A stretch of 64,000 nucleotides of DNA from Escherichia coli (GTDB lineage Bacteria; Pseudomonadota; Gammaproteobacteria; Enterobacterales; Enterobacteriaceae), in NCBI RefSeq assembly GCF_017348835.2, contig NZ_CP071375.1; one strand, given 5' to 3'. The notes below the pieces were generated by a model that was given only the letters and a program-made list of their open reading frames with translations, had not been told where the DNA came from and searched no databases. Below are positions 6,396 to 64,000 of this stretch, in pieces (position 1 is the first letter of the stretch; each line of letters starts with the position of its first letter). The position numbers and the translations under genes are program-made.

Positions 6396-7661
6396 ATGAG
6401 CAACAATGAATTCCATCAGCGTCGTCTTTCTGCCACCCCGCGCGGGGTTGGCGTGATGTGTAACTTCTTCGCCCAGTCGGCTGAAAACGCCACGCTGAAG
6501 GATGTTGAGGGCAACGAGTACATCGATTTCGCCGCAGGCATTGCGGTGCTGAATACCGGACATCGCCACCCTGATCTGGTCGCGGCGGTAGAGCAGCAAC
6601 TGCAACAGTTTACCCACACCGCGTACCAGATTGTGCCGTATGAAAGCTACGTCACCCTGGCGGAGAAAATCAACGCCCTTGCCCCGGTGAGCGGGCAGGC
6701 TAAAACTGCGTTCTTCACCACCGGCGCGGAAGCGGTGGAAAACGCGGTGAAAATCGCCCGCGCCCATACCGGACGCCCTGGTGTGATTGCGTTTAGCGGC
6801 GGCTTCCACGGTCGTACGTATATGACTATGGCGTTAACTGGAAAGGTCGCGCCGTACAAAATCGGCTTCGGCCCGTTCCCTGGTTCGGTGTATCACGTAC
6901 CTTATCCGTCAGATTTACACGGCATTTCAACACAGGACTCCCTCGACGCCATCGAACGCTTGTTTAAATCAGACATCGAAGCGAAGCAGGTCGCGGCGAT
7001 TATTTTCGAACCGGTGCAGGGCGAGGGCGGTTTCAACGTTGCACCCAAAGAGCTGGTTGCCGCCATTCGCCGCCTGTGCGACGAGCACGGTATTGTGATG
7101 ATTGCTGATGAAGTGCAAAGCGGCTTTGCGCGTACCGGTAAGCTGTTTGCCATGGATCATTACGCCGATAAGCCGGATTTAATGACGATGGCGAAAAGCC
7201 TCGCGGGCGGGATGCCGCTTTCGGGCGTGGTCGGTAACGCGAATATTATGGACGCACCTGCGCCGGGCGGGCTTGGCGGCACCTACGCCGGTAACCCGCT
7301 GGCGGTGGCTGCCGCGCACGCGGTGCTCAACATTATCGACAAAGAATCACTCTGCGAACGCGCGAATCAACTGGGCCAGCGTCTGACAAACACGCTGATT
7401 GATGCCAAAGAAAGCGTTCCGGCCATCGCGGCGGTACGCGGTCTGGGGTCTATGATTGCGGCAGAGTTTAACGATCCGCAAACGGGCGAGCCGTCAGCGG
7501 CGATTGCACAGAAAATCCAGCAACGCGCGCTGGCGCAGGGACTGCTTCTACTGACCTGTGGCGCATACGGCAACGTGATTCGTTTCCTGTATCCGCTGAC
7601 CATCCCGGATGCGCAATTCGATGCGGCAATGAAAATTTTGCAGGATGCGCTGAGAGATTAA
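6396..7661 (+). CDS. puuE: 4-aminobutyrate aminotransferase
   Basis: 421-aa class-III PLP aminotransferase. Confidence 0.95.
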   Translation: MSNNEFHQRRLSATPRGVGVMCNFFAQSAENATLKDVEGNEYIDFAAGIAVLNTGHRHPDLVAAVEQQLQQFTHTAYQIVPYESYVTLAEKINALAPVSGQAKTAFFTTGAEAVENAVKIARAHTGRPGVIAFSGGFHGRTYMTMALTGKVAPYKIGFGPFPGSVYHVPYPSDLHGISTQDSLDAIERLFKSDIEAKQVAAIIFEPVQGEGGFNVAPKELVAAIRRLCDEHGIVMIADEVQSGFARTGKLFAMDHYADKPDLMTMAKSLAGGMPLSGVVGNANIMDAPAPGGLGGTYAGNPLAVAAAHAVLNIIDKESLCERANQLGQRLTNTLIDAKESVPAIAAVRGLGSMIAAEFNDPQTGEPSAAIAQKIQQRALAQGLLLLTCGAYGNVIRFLYPLTIPDAQFDAAMKILQDALRD

Positions 7662-54938: not shown

Positions 54939-55009
54939 GAACACCTCCATTATTATTTCCAGTGGTTTGAACCGCCCCGGGTTTCCTGGAGAGTGTTTTA
55001 TCTGTGAAC

Positions 55010-55897
55010 TCAGGCTGCCAGATCATTATTTCCGATGGAAGCATAATAAGCTTTTTCTGCTTCTGCCGGAGGAATATGGCCCAGCCTTTCCAGCAATCGT
55101 CGATTGTTATACCAGTCCACCCACGTGAGTGTGGCCAGTTCCACTTCTGTCCGGTTTTTCCAGCTCTTACGGTGTATTACCTCCGCTTTGTAAAGACCAT
55201 TGATGCTCTCAGCCATCGCGTTGTCATACGAGTCGCCAGTACTCCCTGTTGATGCCAGTAATCCGGCTTCCTTAAGCCGCTGCGTGTAGGCCAGCGATAC
55301 ATACTGAGAACCTTTATCACTGTGATGGATTGTGCCGGACGGCCGACGGGCCCACAACGCCTGCTCCAGTGCATCCAGCACGAATGTTGTTTCCATGGAT
55401 GATGAGACCTGCCATCCCACGATGTATCCGGCGAACACATCAATGATGAACGCCACATAAACGAAGCCCTGCCATGTGCTTACCCAGGTAAAATCAGCCA
55501 CCCACAACTGGTCTGGACGTTCTGCCACGAACTGACGGTTTACGCGGTCGCATGCGGCAACGGCTTTCCGGCTGACGGTAGTGCGGACCTTTTTACCCCG
55601 GAGAACACCGGCAAGTCCCATAACTGCCATGAGACGTGCCACAGTGCATCTGGCCACTCTGATACCTTCCCGTAACAACTGACGCCAGACTTTACGCACA
55701 CCGTATACCTGGTGATTTTCATCGTATACGCGCTGTATCTCTTTCTTCAGCCAGTCATCGTGCTGCGCACGGGCACTGCGTTTATCCGGATGATGTCGCT
55801 GTTGCTGACAATGGTAATACGTTGACGGGGCAATATGCAGTTCGCTGCATACCGGTCCGACCCCGTACTGCTCACGCAGCTTATCCAGCAGTGGCAT
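55010..55897 (-). CDS. IS3-family transposase OrfB (DDE integrase domain)
   Basis: 295-aa frame with rve-type catalytic region; start overlaps the orfA stop (TAATG) next to an A-rich slippery stretch. Confidence 0.9.
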   Translation of the reverse strand: MPLLDKLREQYGVGPVCSELHIAPSTYYHCQQQRHHPDKRSARAQHDDWLKKEIQRVYDENHQVYGVRKVWRQLLREGIRVARCTVARLMAVMGLAGVLRGKKVRTTVSRKAVAACDRVNRQFVAERPDQLWVADFTWVSTWQGFVYVAFIIDVFAGYIVGWQVSSSMETTFVLDALEQALWARRPSGTIHHSDKGSQYVSLAYTQRLKEAGLLASTGSTGDSYDNAMAESINGLYKAEVIHRKSWKNRTEVELATLTWVDWYNNRRLLERLGHIPPAEAEKAYYASIGNNDLAA

Positions 55898-56223
55898 TAT
55901 TTTTTCCAGAGGCGGTCGAACTCCGCCTTCGCAAAATAAGCGGAAGCCTGGCGAAGGATATCGTTACTGCGGCGCAGTTCACGATTTTCACGTTCCAGCT
56001 CTTTCAGACGCTGACGTTCAGCGGTGGTGAGTCCACCATCACCACTCCCGGTATCCCGCTCATGCTGGCGAACCCAGACACGCAGAGTCTCCGGCGTACA
56101 GCCAATCTTTGGGGCAATGGAACAAATTGCCGCCCACTGTGAGTCATATTCATCCTGACTTTCCAGAACCATACGAATCGCCCGCTGACGGACTTCGGGG
56201 GAAAAACGAGTATTTTTAGTCAT
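55897..56223 (-). CDS. IS3-family transposase OrfA (HTH)
   Basis: 108 aa [42 protein letters not shown]... recognised as IS629/IS1203-type OrfA. Confidence 0.9.
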
Positions 56224-56277
56224 CCTGTTTACCTCTTTCTCAGGGAGTTTAGTCTCCAGGATTTCCGGGGCGGTTCA

Positions 56278-56438
56278 GTTCGTTTATTCCATCTTTCGAG
56301 TGCTTCTTTTTCACTTCCACCATAACCGGTTCGGGATTCGCATCCGTTACACTTCGCTCGGTAATATCCTGAAATGGCTTTCACCGTTACTGATGGACAA
56401 CCACAAAATGGACATGGTTTAACATTGTCATATCTCAT
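56278..56438 (-). pseudogene. ralR: restriction-alleviation protein RalR (Lar), 3' end interrupted by the IS element
   Basis: Frame MRYDNVKPCPFCGCPSVTVKAISGYYRAKCNGCESRTGYGGSEKEALERWNKR runs into the IS terminal repeat, after which 15 IS-encoded codons follow. Confidence 0.75.
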
Positions 56439-56494
56439 AATTTTTCTCATAAAAAATATTTCAAGTTGGCGGTGCATTACACCGCCAGGCTGAA

Positions 56495-58436: not shown

Positions 58437-58474
58437 ACAATCGCGAGTCTGGATCCCCTTACCTGGCTGACACC

Positions 58475-59227
58475 ATGCATTTGTCAGCAGAGGAGCATGG
58501 TGCGTATTTGTTGCTGATGTTCAATTACTGGCAAACAGGAAAGCCAATACCTAAAAACAGGCTGGCAAAAATTGCCCGTCTGACTAACGAGCGATGGGCT
58601 GATGTTGAACCATCCTTGCAGGAGTTTTTTTGCGATAACGGCGAGGAATGGGTGCATCTTCGGATTGAGGAAGATCTGGCATCAGTCAGGGAAAAATTAA
58701 CCAAAAAATCAGCCGCAGGAAAAGCATCTGTTCAGGCCAGAAGAAGCAGAAAGGAAGCAGATGTTCAAACAAAACAAGAGAGAAATTTAACAGGTGTTCA
58801 AACAGATGTTGAAGTGGTGTTTGAACATGATGTCAACACAAAGGCAACTAATAAAGATACAGATAAAGATCTAAAAACAGATCCCCCCCTAAATCCCCCC
58901 CGGGGGAATCGAGGTGTCAAAAAGTTTGACCCTCTGGATATTGCTTTGCCGAACTGGATTTCTGTCTCGCTTTGGCGTGAGTGGGTTGAATTTCGCCAGG
59001 CATTGCGAAAACCGATTCGAACGGAGCAGGGCGCTAACGGGGCGATACGGGAGCTGGAAAAATTCCGCCAGCAGGGTTTTTCACCTGAGCAGGTGATTCG
59101 ACACAGCATCGCCAATGAATACCAGGGCTTGTTCGCGCCAAAAGGTGTTCGACCTGAGACGTTACTCCGACAGGTTAACACCGTCTCGTTACCGGATAGT
59201 GCGATCCCGCCAGGCTTCAGGGGGTAA
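58475..59227 (+). CDS. ydaU: prophage replication protein, DUF1376 plus DnaT-like C-terminal domain (YdaU-like)
   Basis: 250 aa from [19 protein letters not shown]; upstream in-frame residues (SPYLADT) still look like DUF1376, suggesting the true N-terminus is missing. Confidence 0.6.
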
Positions 59228-59233
59228 CTGACC

Positions 59234-59980
59234 ATGAAAAATATTGCGGCAGGCGGCATTCTTGAACGTATCCGCAGACTGGCCCCGCCACATGTAACCG
59301 CCCCATTCAAAACGGTAGCGGAGTGGCGCGAGTGGCAACTTTCCGAAGGCCAGAAACGTTGTGAGGAGATCAACCGTCAGAATCGTCAGTTGCGGGTGGA
59401 AAAAATTCTGAATCGCTCCGGCATCCAGCCGTTGCACCGCAAATGCTCGTTTTCGAATTACCAGGTGCAGAACGAAGGGCAGCGATACGCGTTGAGTCAG
59501 GCGAAATCCATCGCTGATGAACTGATGACCGGGTGTACAAATTTTGCGTTCAGCGGAAAACCTGGTACCGGAAAAAACCATCTGGCGGCGGCTATCGGGA
59601 ATCGCCTGCTGAAAGATGGCCAGACAGTGATTGTGGTTACCGTGGCTGATGTCATGAGTGCCCTACACGCCAGCTATGACGACGGGCAATCAGGCGAAAA
59701 ATTTTTGCGGGAACTGTGCCAAGTGGATCTGCTGGTTCTTGATGAAATTGGCATTCAGCGCGAGACAAAAAACGAGCAGGTGGTGCTGCACCAGATTGTT
59801 GATCGCCGGACAGCGTCGATGCGCAGCGTGGGGATGCTGACAAACCTGAATTATGAGGCCATGAAAACATTGCTCGGCGAGAGGATTATGGATCGCATGA
59901 CCATGAACGGCGGGCGATGGGTGAATTTTAACTGGGAGAGCTGGCGTCCGAATGTCGTCCAGCCAGGAATTGCGAAGTAA
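59234..59980 (+). CDS. ydaV: DnaC-like replication protein (helicase loader homolog)
   Basis: 248 aa, colinear with DnaC as I recall it ([17 protein letters not shown], Walker [26 protein letters not shown]). Confidence 0.85.
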
Positions 59981-60002
59981 TTTTTACCGGGAGAAAAATT
60001 TA

Positions 60003-60764
60003 ATGGAGACTGTTTTTGACGCACTGAAAGCAATGGGAAAAGCTACATCCATAGAACTTGCTGCGCGACTTGATATCAGCCGTGAAGAAGTGCTGAACGA
60101 ACTATGGGAACTGAAAAAGGCTGGTTTCGTTGATAAAAGCGCGTACACCTGGCGTGTGGCTGATAACAACGTTCAGCAGGAACAGCCAGCGCCGGCAGAA
60201 CTGCCGGAAGAAACTACCACGGCAACAGTCGCGAAAATTTCAGAGAGCGATTTAACTGCGACGATTGAACAACGTGGTCCACTAACTGCGGATGAACTGG
60301 CTACGTTGTTCGGTACCACATCCCGCAAAGTGGCTTCAACGCTGGCAATGGCAATCAGCAAAGCTCGTCTGATTCGCGTTAATCAGAACGGTAAATTTCG
60401 TTACTGCATGCCGGGCGGTAATTTACCAGCAGAGCCGAAAGCTGCATCGGTAGCGGAAACAGATGGTAAAGCCTTTCCTCAGCTAGCCGGTGTTGCGTTA
60501 CCAGTACAGGAAGCTGCAACACAGGAAGATATTAAAACAGAAACTGTGGCGGACATTGTGCAGTCGTTGCCATCGTTTACTGAAACGCAAGCGGATAACC
60601 TGATTTTACCATCGCTGCATATGGCAAACCGTGAACTGCGTCGGGCGAAAAATCATGTCCAGAAGTGGGAGCGAGTCTGCGCCGCGCTGCGGGAGCTGAA
60701 CAAGCACCGGGATATTGTTCGACAGATTACTGATTCTTCCCGCCGTGTTGTATCGGAAAAGTGA
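60003..60764 (+). CDS. hypothetical prophage protein with two winged-helix-like segments
   Basis: 253 aa from [45 protein letters not shown]; ATG at 60003 with GGGAGA RBS; the longer ORF-track start at 59952 overlaps ydaV. Confidence 0.6.
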
Positions 60765-60779
60765 TTGCCGGAGGCGCTT

Positions 60780-61211
60780 ATGGCAAAAGTATTTACACAA
60801 GAAGAGCGGGAAAAAATTAAAGGGCAGGTTGTTGAACTAGTACGCCGGAGTGGGCGCGAGACGTTACGGCAACTGGAAGCCAAGACAGGTGCGACAAGAT
60901 ATCTGATGAGCGTTCTCGCCAGAGAGCTGGTTGCCAGTGGCGATGTATACAACTCTGGTTACGGGTTATTCCCGTCTGAACAGGCTCGTAAGGACTGGCA
61001 AAATGCCCGCAAAAAACTATCTAGGGCAAAGGTGAAGAAACCATCTGTGGTTGATCCGGACCTTATCTGGTCATTACCAGACGGAGAAATACGCCGCTAC
61101 GACAGGCGTCTGAACATAATCTGTCGCGAGTGCCGGAAGAGCGAAGTTATGCAGCGTGTGCTGGCGTTTTATCAGAATGGTTTTCGAGAGAGGCTTGGAG
61201 ATCAGGGATGA
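60780..61211 (+). CDS. hypothetical prophage protein
   Basis: 143 aa from MAKVFTQEEREKIKGQVVELVRR; GGAGG RBS 5-6 nt upstream of the ATG at 60780. Confidence 0.55.
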   Translation: MAKVFTQEEREKIKGQVVELVRRSGRETLRQLEAKTGATRYLMSVLARELVASGDVYNSGYGLFPSEQARKDWQNARKKLSRAKVKKPSVVDPDLIWSLPDGEIRRYDRRLNIICRECRKSEVMQRVLAFYQNGFRERLGDQG

Positions 61212-61404
61212 ATAGAACGATGAAGGATGGAAGCTACATATTCTCGGTACTAAGATTTATTTTTCTGACACAAAATGACCATTTGGCGTTACATAATCCC
61301 AAAAAAACGTATCAAAAATCTCAAAATGCGTTACGATTAGAGAGTATTTTGATTCTGCGTGCTCATTTTTTGATTGCTGTGGCTTTTTGTTGTGGGAGTG
61401 TTGA

Positions 61405-62559
61405 ATGGATTATTTATCAGAAGTGTTAAAAATCATTGAAGGTGCAACAAAGGCAAATGCTTCGATGGCTAGTAATTATGCTGGGTTGCTGGCAGATAAG
61501 CTCGAACAAAAAGGGGAGGTCAAGCAAGCCAGAATGATAAGAGAAAGGTTGCTTAGAGCTCCCCAGGCGTTGGCAGGAGCTCAAAGGGCTGGAGGTGGGA
61601 TATCTCTGGGCTCATTACCGGTAGATATTGATAGTCGACTCAACACTGTTGATGTCAGTTATCCTAAATTAGACAGTTCAGAGATTTTTCTGCCTGCAGC
61701 AATCAGTACCCGTGTTGAAGAGTTTATCACTAATGTTCAACGTTATGATGAGTTTGTTAAAGCTGATGCAGCATTGCCGAGTCGTATGCTCGTGTATGGA
61801 AAGCCAGGAACAGGTAAGACTATGTTATCTAAGTACATCGCTACCCGCTTAGATTTTCCACTTCTTACAGTGCGTTGCGATACTTTGATTAGTAGTTTAT
61901 TGGGACAAACCAGCAAAAATCTTAGACAGGTTTTCGATTATGTAATGCAGAGGCCATCAGTGCTTTTTTTAGACGAATTTGATGCTTTAGCTGGAGCAAG
62001 AGGTAATGAGAGAGATATAGGTGAGCTTCAGCGAGTTGTCATTTCACTATTGCAGAATATGGATGCGGCATCAGAGGATACGGTAATTATTGCCTCAACT
62101 AACCATGAGCAACTTCTGGATCCTGCAATCTGGAGGCGATTTAGCTTCAGAATTCCAATGCCTCTGCCTGACATACATCAGAGAGAGTTAATTTGGAAAA
62201 ATCGTTTAAAGAATATGATATGTAGCGATCTAGATTTAAGTGATTTATCAAGAAAATCGGAAGGATTATCCGGAGCAATAATTGAACAGGTGAGCTTGGA
62301 TGCACGTAGGGATGCAGTTATTGAAGGTGCAAGTGTGATAAATCACCACAAATTGTATAGGCGTTTGTATCTTGCTCAATCGCTTATGGAAGGTGTAAAT
62401 TTAAGCACTTACGAAGATGAAATTCGTTGGTTACGTTCTAAAGATAAAAAATTATTTTCTATCAGAGTTCTTGCTAATTTGTACAAACTTACATCAAGAG
62501 TAATTTCAAACATTCTGAAGGAGTCAGGAGCATATGAGCAGAAGGGGTACACAGTTTAG
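61405..62559 (+). CDS. classic-clade AAA ATPase with ~125-aa N-terminal extension; first gene of the ATPase-protease cassette
   Basis: 384 aa; Walker A GKPGTGKT (61798-61821), Walker B VLFLDEFD (D190/E191 at 61972-61977), sensor-1 IIASTN, arginine-finger region DPAIWRRF; GGGAG RBS; AT-rich. Confidence 0.85.
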   Translation: MDYLSEVLKIIEGATKANASMASNYAGLLADKLEQKGEVKQARMIRERLLRAPQALAGAQRAGGGISLGSLPVDIDSRLNTVDVSYPKLDSSEIFLPAAISTRVEEFITNVQRYDEFVKADAALPSRMLVYGKPGTGKTMLSKYIATRLDFPLLTVRCDTLISSLLGQTSKNLRQVFDYVMQRPSVLFLDEFDALAGARGNERDIGELQRVVISLLQNMDAASEDTVIIASTNHEQLLDPAIWRRFSFRIPMPLPDIHQRELIWKNRLKNMICSDLDLSDLSRKSEGLSGAIIEQVSLDARRDAVIEGASVINHHKLYRRLYLAQSLMEGVNLSTYEDEIRWLRSKDKKLFSIRVLANLYKLTSRVISNILKESGAYEQKGYTV

Positions 62560-64000
62560 TAACGCAAAAGTTACAAACCCAACGTTAAGAATCCCTTTTT
62601 CCAGTAGTGACTTGGGTGCAATAGTAAACGCTGGCGGTGGGGCAAAGGTATTGGTTGATGTAACAGCCGAATATAGACAAGGGCTAGTAAGAAATTTAAC
62701 AACCAGTAAACATTATTTAGAATCCAAACTTTCAGAGTACCCTGGAAGCTTGGGTACTTTGGTTTTCAAATTAAGAGACCAGGGAATAGCCAAAACGCAT
62801 AGGCCGAACAAAATTGCTCAAGAGGCTGGATTGCAAAATGCCGGTCATGCCAAAATAGATGAAATGTTGGTTGCTGCTCATGCCGGCTGTTTTGACGTAT
62901 TAGAGTCAGTCATTTTAAATCGGAATATTAAAGCGATTTTGGCTAATCTAAGCGCGATTGAGCGCATTGAACCTTGGGATGAGAATAGGAAGGTTCCGGG
63001 AGGCACTGATGGTTTGTTTGAATCATCAAACATCCTTGTACGACTATTTGAGTACACAGGTGAAGATGCAACTTACAACAACTATGAAAACGTTATTTCT
63101 ATATTAGAACAATACGGAGTTAAATATGATGAAATTAGACAAAAATGTGGTCTTCCCTTATTAAGGATAATGGATTTATCCCCAAGTGATAGATATATAT
63201 TAGACATTCTCATTGATTACCCGGGTATAAGAACGTTAATTCCAGAACCAAAATATTCAGCATTCCCGGTTAGTGTAAGTGATTCTGTTGGCATTGAAAC
63301 AAATAGCTTTCCCGTACCATCAGAAGAATTACCCATTGTTGCTGTATTTGACACTGGGGTAAGCCCCATCGCGGCAACAATTACTCCTTGGGTAGTGAGT
63401 AGGGAAACATACGTAATTCCTCCTGATACGAGTTATGAACATGGGACTATGGTGTCTTCATTGATATCAGGCGCTCATTTTTTAAATGACAATCATCCAT
63501 GGATTCCTGATACAAAATCTAAAATCCATGATGTTTGTGCTTTAGATGAAAATGGATCTTATATATCAGATTTAATTCTGAGGCTAGCAGATGCTGTAAA
63601 TAAAAGACCAGATATAAAAGTCTGGAATTTGTCTTTGGGAGGCGGACCATGTAATGAGCAGATGTTTAGTGATTTTGCGATGGAGTTAGATCGGCTCAGC
63701 GATAAATTTGGTATTTTGTTTGTAGTTGCTGCAGGTAATTATGTAGATGAACCTATACGTACATGGCCAAATCCTGATCCGCTTGGAGGTGCTGATTTAA
63801 TTTCCTCTCCTGGAGAGTCAGTCCGAGCACTAACAGTTGGTTCAGTTTCTCATATGGAAGCTAATGATGCTTTAAGTGAAATTGGAACACCGACACCATA
63901 TACTCGTCGTGGCCCTGGTCCTGTATTTACTCCAAAGCCAGATATAATCCATGCTGGCGGTGGGGTTCATAGACCTTGGAATGTAGGAGCAAGCAGTTTA
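62534..64000 (+). CDS. subtilisin-like (S8) serine peptidase, partial (runs off window end); second gene of the cassette
   Basis: ATG at 62534 overlaps the ATPase 3' end by 26 nt; catalytic Asp in VAVFDTG (63350-63352), His in YEHGTMVSS (63440-63442), S8 motifs VWNLSLGG and VVAAGN (Asn at 63737-63739); catalytic Ser expected beyond 64000; ~270 aa precede the catalytic core. Confidence 0.8.
   Translation, partial: MSRRGTQFSNAKVTNPTLRIPFSSSDLGAIVNAGGGAKVLVDVTAEYRQGLVRNLTTSKHYLESKLSEYPGSLGTLVFKLRDQGIAKTHRPNKIAQEAGLQNAGHAKIDEMLVAAHAGCFDVLESVILNRNIKAILANLSAIERIEPWDENRKVPGGTDGLFESSNILVRLFEYTGEDATYNNYENVISILEQYGVKYDEIRQKCGLPLLRIMDLSPSDRYILDILIDYPGIRTLIPEPKYSAFPVSVSDSVGIETNSFPVPSEELPIVAVFDTGVSPIAATITPWVVSRETYVIPPDTSYEHGTMVSSLISGAHFLNDNHPWIPDTKSKIHDVCALDENGSYISDLILRLADAVNKRPDIKVWNLSLGGGPCNEQMFSDFAMELDRLSDKFGILFVVAAGNYVDEPIRTWPNPDPLGGADLISSPGESVRALTVGSVSHMEANDALSEIGTPTPYTRRGPGPVFTPKPDIIHAGGGVHRPWNVGASSL

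Follow-up and report, generated by a model that had tools for sequence, protein, structure and literature searches.

Results

Two coding sequences upstream of the IetAS cassette

This work concerns two adjacent genes in a window of 64,000 nucleotides (nt) of Escherichia coli DNA (contig NZ_CP071375.1), the window being the whole stretch that was analyzed. The locus is a Rac-type prophage, and the two genes, which encode proteins of 253 and 143 amino acids (aa), lie between its replication genes and a cassette encoding the IetAS defence system. It is very probable that they belong to the conserved backbone of Rac-type lambdoid prophages, the first as the full-length form of YdaW and the second as a long-form homologue of the Ren protein of phage lambda, and that both stand outside the defence cassette. 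The two genes are:

60003-60764, + strand: DUF1627 / YdaW-family gene, 253 aa, ATG to TGA; the full-length form of K-12 Rac ydaW
60780-61211, + strand: DUF977 gene, 143 aa ('LygF' or 'Ren-like exclusion protein' in phage records), ATG to TGA

A preliminary description of this DNA had placed two co-oriented open reading frames (ORFs) of 253 and 143 aa directly upstream of the cassette, and its coordinates proved exact, as they match the coding sequences in the RefSeq annotation of strain SCU-104. Over 59900-61500 the DNA of that strain is 100% identical to the window, and RefSeq holds both products, as WP_000450660.1 ('DUF1627 domain-containing protein') and WP_001403739.1 ('DUF977 family protein'). 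Longer alternative ORFs can be read from ATG 59952 and TTG 60765; the Shine-Dalgarno sequences belong to the shorter starts (GGGAGA about 10 nt ahead of ATG 60003, and GGAGG at 60770-60774, 5 nt ahead of ATG 60780), which are also those annotated in SCU-104, and the N-terminus METV... of the 253-aa protein is invariant in its homologues. The gaps are short, 22 nt between ydaV and the DUF1627 gene and 15 nt between the latter and the DUF977 gene, each with a Shine-Dalgarno sequence, and the GC content of both genes is about 50%. Compared with 38-39 distinct alleles, the median Nei-Gojobori ratio of non-synonymous to synonymous substitutions (dN/dS) was 0.16 for the DUF1627 gene and 0.11 for the DUF977 gene, indicating purifying selection; by these values and by the Pfam scores given below, both ORFs are genuine coding sequences. 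A further ORF of 99 aa with a GTG start (61130-61429, + strand) covers the entire spacer behind the DUF977 gene as well as the last part of that gene; it is AT-rich and without family support, its counterpart in phage vB_EcoS-683R6 (ON470595) is labelled 'kinase (fragment)', and it is most likely spurious.

The 143-aa protein as a long form of lambda Ren

The 143-aa protein matches Pfam DUF977 (PF06163) with 99.7 bits against a gathering cutoff of 22.1 (E=2e-28, profile positions 1-133 of 134), so that its membership extends across the entire model. Its relationship to lambda Ren (96 aa, encoded by J02459 40280-40570) emerged from phrog_142 ('Ren-like exclusion protein'), which recognizes the 143-aa protein at 2.3e-46 and lambda Ren at 1.6e-41 and thereby places them in a common profile family. 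A C-terminal segment that we call the Ren motif reads NIICRECRKSEVMQRVLAFY in the window and NLVFKECRQSAAMKRVLAVY in lambda (11/20 identical, BLASTP E=2e-6), and it is conserved in our alignment of DUF977 proteins (A1). The segments of the gene that encode the two recognizable parts of the protein are:

60798-60971, + strand: winged-helix domain of the DUF977 protein, residues 7-64 (AlphaFold predicted local distance difference test score, pLDDT, 92-96)
61113-61172, + strand: conserved C-terminal Ren motif (BLASTP against lambda Ren; alignment A1)

The AlphaFold model (pLDDT 78 overall, 92-96 over residues 11-80) predicts a winged helix at residues 7-64, a helix at 67-83, a disordered insert at 84-115 and short helices carrying the Ren motif at 116-132, and a Foldseek search of the PDB with this model gave winged helices of MarR, ArsR, GntR and AspA as the best matches (probability ~0.99, E ~0.03). 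Lambda Ren and the DUF977 protein thus have in common phrog_142, an N-terminal winged helix and the C-terminal Ren motif, and their genes share a position at the 3' end of an initiator/helicase-loader operon, upstream of the nin/Q region. The DUF977 protein differs in being 47 residues longer, with the extra helix 67-83 and the disordered insert 84-115, and in carrying a CxxC pair where lambda Ren has a single cysteine; in the scan, lambda Ren fell short of the Pfam DUF977 model.

With the DUF977 protein as query, an exhaustive HMMER search across 1.84 billion representatives returned 104 matches, many of them fragments, and no fused domain giving a functional hint was seen among these matches; the family appears narrow and mostly carried by enterobacterial phages. 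As for its names, 'LygF' is a label in GenBank phage records, for which a literature search returned unrelated matches only and no described function, while the homologue in the Shiga toxin (Stx) phage 75/02 is called 'Ren-like exclusion protein' in RefSeq.

The 253-aa protein of the YdaW family

The 253-aa protein matches Pfam DUF1627 (PF07789) over residues 88-242 with 323 bits against a gathering cutoff of 28.1 (E=3e-97, profile positions 1-155 of 155), again across the entire model, and phrog_630 at 7e-128. Two winged-helix-like segments had been noticed in it from the letters alone, and both appear in the AlphaFold model, which was built from a 17-sequence alignment and has a mean pLDDT of 68, with 80-94 in the folded parts. 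The predicted folded parts are:

60012-60158, + strand: first winged-helix domain of the DUF1627 protein, residues 4-52 (AlphaFold pLDDT 87-94, helix-helix-helix-hairpin)
60243-60407, + strand: second winged-helix domain of the DUF1627 protein, residues 81-135 (AlphaFold pLDDT 86-90)
60615-60758, + strand: long C-terminal helix of the DUF1627 protein, residues 205-252 (AlphaFold model; invariant columns of alignment A2)

Between them the model places disordered linkers, at residues 56-76 and in an acidic stretch at 142-201. Across the alleles the first winged helix and the core of the C-terminal helix are almost invariant and the linkers are mosaic: nearly all columns of residues 1-50 are invariant in the alignment of DUF1627 alleles (A2), as is the core RELRRxK..V.KWERVC.ALRELNK.R of the helix that follows the acidic linker. 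The first winged helix gave weak matches to the HTH_Crp_2, HTH_20 and ArsR profiles. The second weakly resembles the winged helix of the Ren/DUF977 proteins (phrog_142 matches residues 82-134 with E=1.9e-4; A2 and A1 align in hhalign with E=8e-5, probability 60%), and because of this resemblance the two genes may be distant paralogues.

The best Foldseek matches of the DUF1627 model in the PDB were the tandem winged-helix proteins ScpB, ESCRT-II and SelB (E 5e-5 to 7e-3); MarR/ArsR-type domains were also found. ScpB, the ESCRT-II subunits and the C-terminal domains of SelB likewise have two small winged helices in a row; however, TM-scores (template modelling scores) are about 0.2, there is no sequence similarity, and the domains of the DUF1627 model are joined by a disordered linker rather than packed together, so the predicted likeness is one of architecture only. 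For both proteins, Foldseek against the PDB found generic (tandem) winged helices only and nothing informative about the fold of the C-terminal parts, and a sequence search of the PDB gave no match under E=0.3.

Position in Rac-type prophages and relationship to K-12 Rac

The gene that precedes the pair is the last of the replication module:

59234-59980, + strand: ydaV, DnaC/IstB-like helicase loader (Pfam IstB_IS21 6e-20, Bac_DnaA 7e-9; RefSeq 'ydaV')

In the window ydaV is an intact ORF of 248 aa; in the near-identical SCU-104 prophage (locus L001, 11335-12081) RefSeq treats it as a pseudogene with an internal stop.

The SCU-104 prophage reads intR ... recT recE racC ydaE kilR sieB ydaF racR, then ydaS ydaT ydaU ydaV DUF1627 DUF977, and after DUF977 iteA iteS, followed by DUF1367 DUF1364 DUF1133 (Q-like) ... 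holin, lysozyme and trkG. In the window the order is ydaU (DUF1376, initiator-like), ydaV (DnaC-like), DUF1627 and DUF977, all on the + strand, which is the position expected of a Ren family gene, and the pair stands directly after replication genes in SCU-104, MINF_8D, O157 F7349, phage vB_EcoS-683R6, Rac-SA53 and Stx phage 75/02 as well. This arrangement parallels that of lambda, where ren follows O and P, except for the intercalated DUF1627 gene, which is not in lambda. Since the gaps are only 22 and 15 nt and the scan found no promoter- or terminator-like site between ydaV, DUF1627 and DUF977, we consider it very probable that the early rightward replication operon of an intact prophage (racR / ydaS-ydaT-ydaU-ydaV-DUF1627-DUF977) ends with the pair. 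The preliminary suggestion that the two proteins might be prophage regulatory or replication accessory proteins is favoured by the context, with an early rightward operon position after initiator and helicase loader and a Ren homologue at the position of ren.

The relationship to K-12 Rac, which the preliminary description had left unclear, can now be explained. The K-12 DH1 annotation labels the gene that follows ydaV 'DUF1627 domain-containing protein, incomplete, missing C-terminus' (pseudogene); K-12 ydaW is also listed as a putative transcription factor. Because the match to DH1 covers only the first 450 bp (about 150 codons) of the DUF1627 gene of the window, with 93.8% DNA identity, and then abuts a lysis gene, K-12 ydaW is a 5' remnant of the DUF1627 gene, and the segment from DUF977 to the lysis gene has been deleted. 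K-12 Rac therefore has no DUF977 gene, cargo slot or nin/Q region and no holin and lysozyme genes. Its ydaW has the same position directly after ydaV as the DUF1627 gene of the window, and it keeps both winged helices; the acidic linker and the conserved C-terminal helix are lost.

The place of the pair is more constant than the replication genes in front of it. Alleles of DUF1627/DUF977 that are 93-95% identical follow at least three unrelated replication modules, namely YdaU (DUF1376) with a DnaC-like loader, a DnaT-domain initiator with a lambda-P-like loader, and HTH_36 with a DnaB-type helicase. Position after replication genes is conserved and the initiator is not, which argues against a dedicated contact with one initiator. 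The idea that the two genes form an obligate pair was discarded, as each is found alone in some phages; in mEp460_ev081 the DUF977 gene directly follows a single replication gene.

These data bear on the view that the two proteins are pure replication accessory factors, without any counter-defence role, which would assist or regulate the assembly of the YdaU/YdaV replisome, for example by binding the origin through their winged helices or by controlling the theta-to-sigma switch. The supplement of Thomason et al. (10.1101/2021.04.19.439022), which cites Weigel & Seitz 2006, Toothman & Herskowitz 1980 and Rajagopala et al. 2011, presents ren as the third, co-translated gene of initiator-helicase loader modules; in the literature ren is associated with all such modules and 'likely involved in DNA replication'. 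The supplement also reports that growth of heteroimmune lambda ren- is poor on Rex+ lysogens and that suppressors lie in O and P, and that Ren binds RexB in yeast two-hybrid and RexA and RexB in bacterial two-hybrid assays. The conserved place directly behind the replication genes and the mapping of ren- suppressors to O and P agree with a replication factor. Specific contact with one initiator or loader, however, is difficult to reconcile with near-identical alleles behind unrelated modules, and K-12 Rac and some phages do without one or both genes. Moreover, lambda ren is dispensable for replication, and neither P-lethality nor replicative killing needs Ren. We therefore consider a purely replicative role rather unlikely.

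The pair and the IetAS cassette

The features downstream of the pair are:

61171-61176, no strand: mosaic boundary, where homology with Rac-like prophages without IetAS ends (55/84 loci)
61212-61404, + strand: AT-rich spacer of 193 bp, 5' leader and presumed promoter region of IetAS (GC ~36%)
61405-62559, + strand: ietA (RefSeq iteA), AAA+ ATPase (PADLOC IetA 8.9e-143; NCBIfam IteA equivalog 526.6 against a cutoff of 510)
62534-64000, + strand: ietS, S8 peptidase, incomplete at the window end (mapping of the window onto L001; full-length L001 protein, PADLOC IetS 1.7e-300)

The occurrence of the pair and of the cassette was counted in 5426 complete E. coli genomes. The IetAS allele of the window is found in 77 of them, always chromosomal and at least 99% identical, and all 77 copies lie directly after a DUF977 gene (the DUF977-ietA junction likewise occurs in 77/5426). 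The DUF1627+DUF977 pair at a coverage of at least 80% is present in 984/5426 and the ydaV-DUF1627 junction in 1292/5426. DUF977 DNA matches occur in about 76% of the genomes; the 3' part of the gene was located in 4134/5426, at 7187 places, only 77 of which are followed by ietA. In the 80 viral contigs with the greatest similarity to the 253-aa protein, the DUF977 gene is next after DUF1627 in 79 cases and IetA is present in 14.

The proposal, made in the preliminary description, that the two genes could be additional components or regulators of the downstream system does not stand against these numbers. As components of IetAS, or as a self-immunity factor for it, they would be expected to travel with IetA and IetS, and neither gene does so (984 against 77 genomes, and 34 cargo configurations). 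The constant place of all 77 IetAS copies behind DUF977, and the DUF977 allele 98-100% identical to that of the window usually found where IetA follows, could be taken to favour such a role. However, the association holds in one direction only, a pattern that together with a near-identical linked allele is expected from a single insertion followed by hitch-hiking; in loci L057 and L060 IetAS lies beside a 93% DUF977 allele, the identity of the DUF1627 alleles beside IetAS ranges over 89-100%, and the replication genes vary too. The PADLOC models of IetAS consist of IetA and IetS only, neither protein has a significant PADLOC match (the 253-aa protein gave only weak CARF/Csa3 winged-helix matches, E ~3-5e-4), and the cloned Bacillus ietAS is active as a two-gene unit. 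The pair is thus widespread in prophages without the cassette, essentially the pattern that the preliminary description had named as speaking against a cassette role, and membership in IetAS is highly improbable and close to refuted. The one-way link is read here as the trace of a single insertion at a recombination hotspot.

A hypervariable cargo slot behind the Ren-like gene

The interval between the DUF977 and DUF1367 genes was surveyed in the 56 loci, among L001-L087, that have both genes. It measures 2.2-6.1 kb and occurs in 34 distinct configurations at 80% reciprocal coverage, so Rac-like prophages have a hypervariable cargo site there, bounded by the Ren-like gene on one side and by the DUF1367/nin-Q genes on the other. 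In the window this slot starts at 61171-61176 and extends past the last position, 64000. PADLOC recognized IetAS, Tmn, NsnA+NsnB, HEC-04 (OLD/PtuA-like) and HEC-06 (GmrSD-like) among the cargoes, the OLD/PtuA-like ATPase occurring with a Dcm methylase; large proteins without a PADLOC match, such as a 752-aa P-loop protein (L035) and a 471-aa protein (L082), are also found. Other contents after the pair include Dcm methylase with an OLD-like nuclease and Hok, methyltransferases with an ATPase, ead-like genes with IS1, and a RelE toxin-antitoxin, and a DUF1627-only phage has a Paa/AdfO adhesin at the equivalent position. The hotspots of P2 and P4 (Rousset et al., 2022, PMC9122126) are likewise slots bounded by conserved phage genes, with many alternative cargoes and several defence systems; the Rac-like slot differs in sitting between a ren-like gene and DUF1367/nin-Q, and in having its left boundary inside the last codons of the flanking gene.

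This boundary falls directly after the codons for ...MQRVLAFYQ, the end of the Ren motif, and the last 6-12 DUF977 codons vary with the cargo, the tail NGFRERLGDQG being present only where IetA follows. The tails form a limited set of types, among them SNFRRLSGEHD, GDVRYLLK, GNFQEVLL and GNLRYL (in loci including L003/L013/L014/L032 and L011/L012). That tail types are partly common to different cargoes suggests several nearby recombination breakpoints rather than one. A repeat search found short two- or three-copy repeats only. One of them, a 15-nt direct repeat of TTTATCAGAATGGTT (61168-61182) and TTTATCAGAAGTGTT (61413-61427), 13/15 identical, touches the mosaic boundary and the start of ietA; although suggestively placed, it is probably due to chance.

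The spacer between the pair and ietA, previously put at 190 bp and AT-rich, measures 193 bp with about 36% GC, against 33-46% in the cassette and about 50% in the backbone, and it was found in exactly the 77 IetAS-bearing genomes. By these comparisons of sequence, the spacer is part of the imported IetAS cassette and not of the prophage backbone, with the pair as backbone flanking the slot and spacer plus IetAS as its cargo. Promoter and terminator scans of 59900-61600 found no sigma-70 site, and terminators at chance level only; under relaxed settings a single weak match appeared, CTGACA/GACACA...CATAAT (about 61265-61297, spacing 19-21 nt), on which we do not rely. The predicted RNA fold of the spacer is not better than that of shuffled sequence (z=+1.3). 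Small RNAs of prophages have been reported near DUF1627 genes; since an Rfam scan of 59000-64000 gave no family at E<=1, they can be ruled out here as far as curated models tell.

The slot raises the question of whether the pair could act as winged-helix transcription regulators of any cargo downstream, as generic switches of the BrxR or CapW type. Both proteins have MarR/ArsR/GntR-type winged helices, they are encoded directly upstream of a defence-rich slot, and BrxR is in the Foldseek list, far down at rank 38. Regulators of that type combine a winged helix-turn-helix with a following WYL/WCX domain, and Pfam, NCBIfam and PADLOC revealed no WYL or other sensor domain in either protein, the one hint being a sub-threshold match to HTH_PafC on the N-terminal helix-turn-helix (E=0.017). 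Because the cargoes are unrelated, lie in either orientation and are in part not defence genes, as with the Paa/AdfO adhesin, a shared operator is unlikely; no inverted or operator-like repeats were found in 59900-61500, and the spacer upstream of ietA came with the cassette and not with the supposed regulators. In addition, lambda Ren has the same fold and only the nin region downstream. A role as cargo regulators is therefore improbable.

State of the copy in the window

Compared with SCU-104, the prophage of the window carries two rearrangements. An insertion sequence element of the IS3 family, about 1.3 kb long (54968-56277), sits within the 3' end of the toxin gene ralR, with two overlapping transposase ORFs at 55010-56223 (- strand), and leaves a chimeric 82-aa ORF at 56229-56477. 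A 5.25-kb deletion at 58459-58463 joins the interior of recE (- strand) to about codon 31 of ydaU and removes racC, ydaE, kilR, sieB, ydaF, racR, ydaS and ydaT together with the early promoter region; racR and the toxin genes ydaS/ydaT are thereby lost together. Two pig isolates of E. coli, PE164 and F2_81, have the identical junction. Because racR-ydaT and the early promoter region are deleted, the DUF1627/DUF977 pair may be silent (not transcribed) in this strain; IetAS has a leader of its own and could be expressed nonetheless.

Discussion

A possible role of the Ren-like protein

The identification of the 143-aa protein as a long form of lambda Ren offers a starting point for its function. 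Protection from Rex (RexAB) exclusion and binding to RexA and RexB are known for lambda Ren alone and would apply to the DUF977 protein by analogy; it is on account of the literature on lambda Ren that a Rex-countering role is proposed here. We suggest, tentatively and with somewhat less than even confidence, that the DUF977 protein acts through protein contacts during the replication stage of lytic growth, as has been proposed for lambda Ren, and has a Ren-like role against Rex-type exclusion. With its winged helix and Ren motif it would bind complexes that initiate replication, the sensor of a Rex-type abortive-infection system, or both, with the result that a resident prophage would not be prompted to exclusion by the phage's own replication. 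For YdaW we suggest a similar part, accessory or in counter-defence, as a related and probably dimeric adaptor with tandem winged helices. Identity and mechanism taken jointly, this is the best explanation we can offer, and its chance of being right in full comes near to even, without quite reaching it.

Several points weigh against this proposal. Over the full length, the DUF977 protein and lambda Ren are only 26% identical in a MAFFT alignment, so that the Ren link consists of profile similarity and one 20-residue motif, and the mechanism of lambda Ren is itself unknown. In the window the DUF1627 gene intervenes between the loader and the Ren-like gene, whereas in lambda P and ren overlap, and the pair is not obligate, since mEp460_ev081 has DUF977 only and the PPompW phages have DUF1627 only. 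Winged helices would fit plain transcription factors equally well. Finally, Rex is not known to be common, and for this reason the relevant target of a Ren-like protein may differ from Rex.

A broader form of the same idea is that the Ren-like protein and YdaW make up a general counter-defence module of lambdoid prophages at the head of the cargo slot. The Ren-like protein would then bind and neutralize Rex-type and perhaps other replication-sensing abortive-infection systems, and the tandem winged helices of YdaW would neutralize nucleic-acid-dependent toxins such as RcaT of retron-Sen2. The truncated ydaW of K-12, overexpressed from a plasmid in a screen, did block the retron-Sen2 toxin RcaT; as the result of an overexpression screen, however, this effect may be non-specific. 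We consider such a general module unlikely.

Significance for Rac-like prophages and the Ren family

The DUF1627/YdaW and DUF977/LygF/'Ren-like' families were already catalogued, and identical proteins are in RefSeq. This work adds to them by linking the DUF977 family explicitly to lambda Ren, by explaining ydaW of K-12, and by defining a cargo slot and its left boundary. In practice, anyone who clones or models the IetAS cassette should not count the pair as belonging to it, and the Rac-like slot, which has the conserved end of the DUF977 gene as its left edge, is a place where defence systems could be sought. What is called the 'gene' ydaW in K-12 is left over from a larger protein that is widely conserved. 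The mechanism of lambda Ren is still unknown decades after its discovery, and the DUF977 family, its long form, provides a large natural allele series in which Ren can be studied. If the counter-defence module outlined above were true, two very common E. coli 'DUF' genes would be anti-defence genes.

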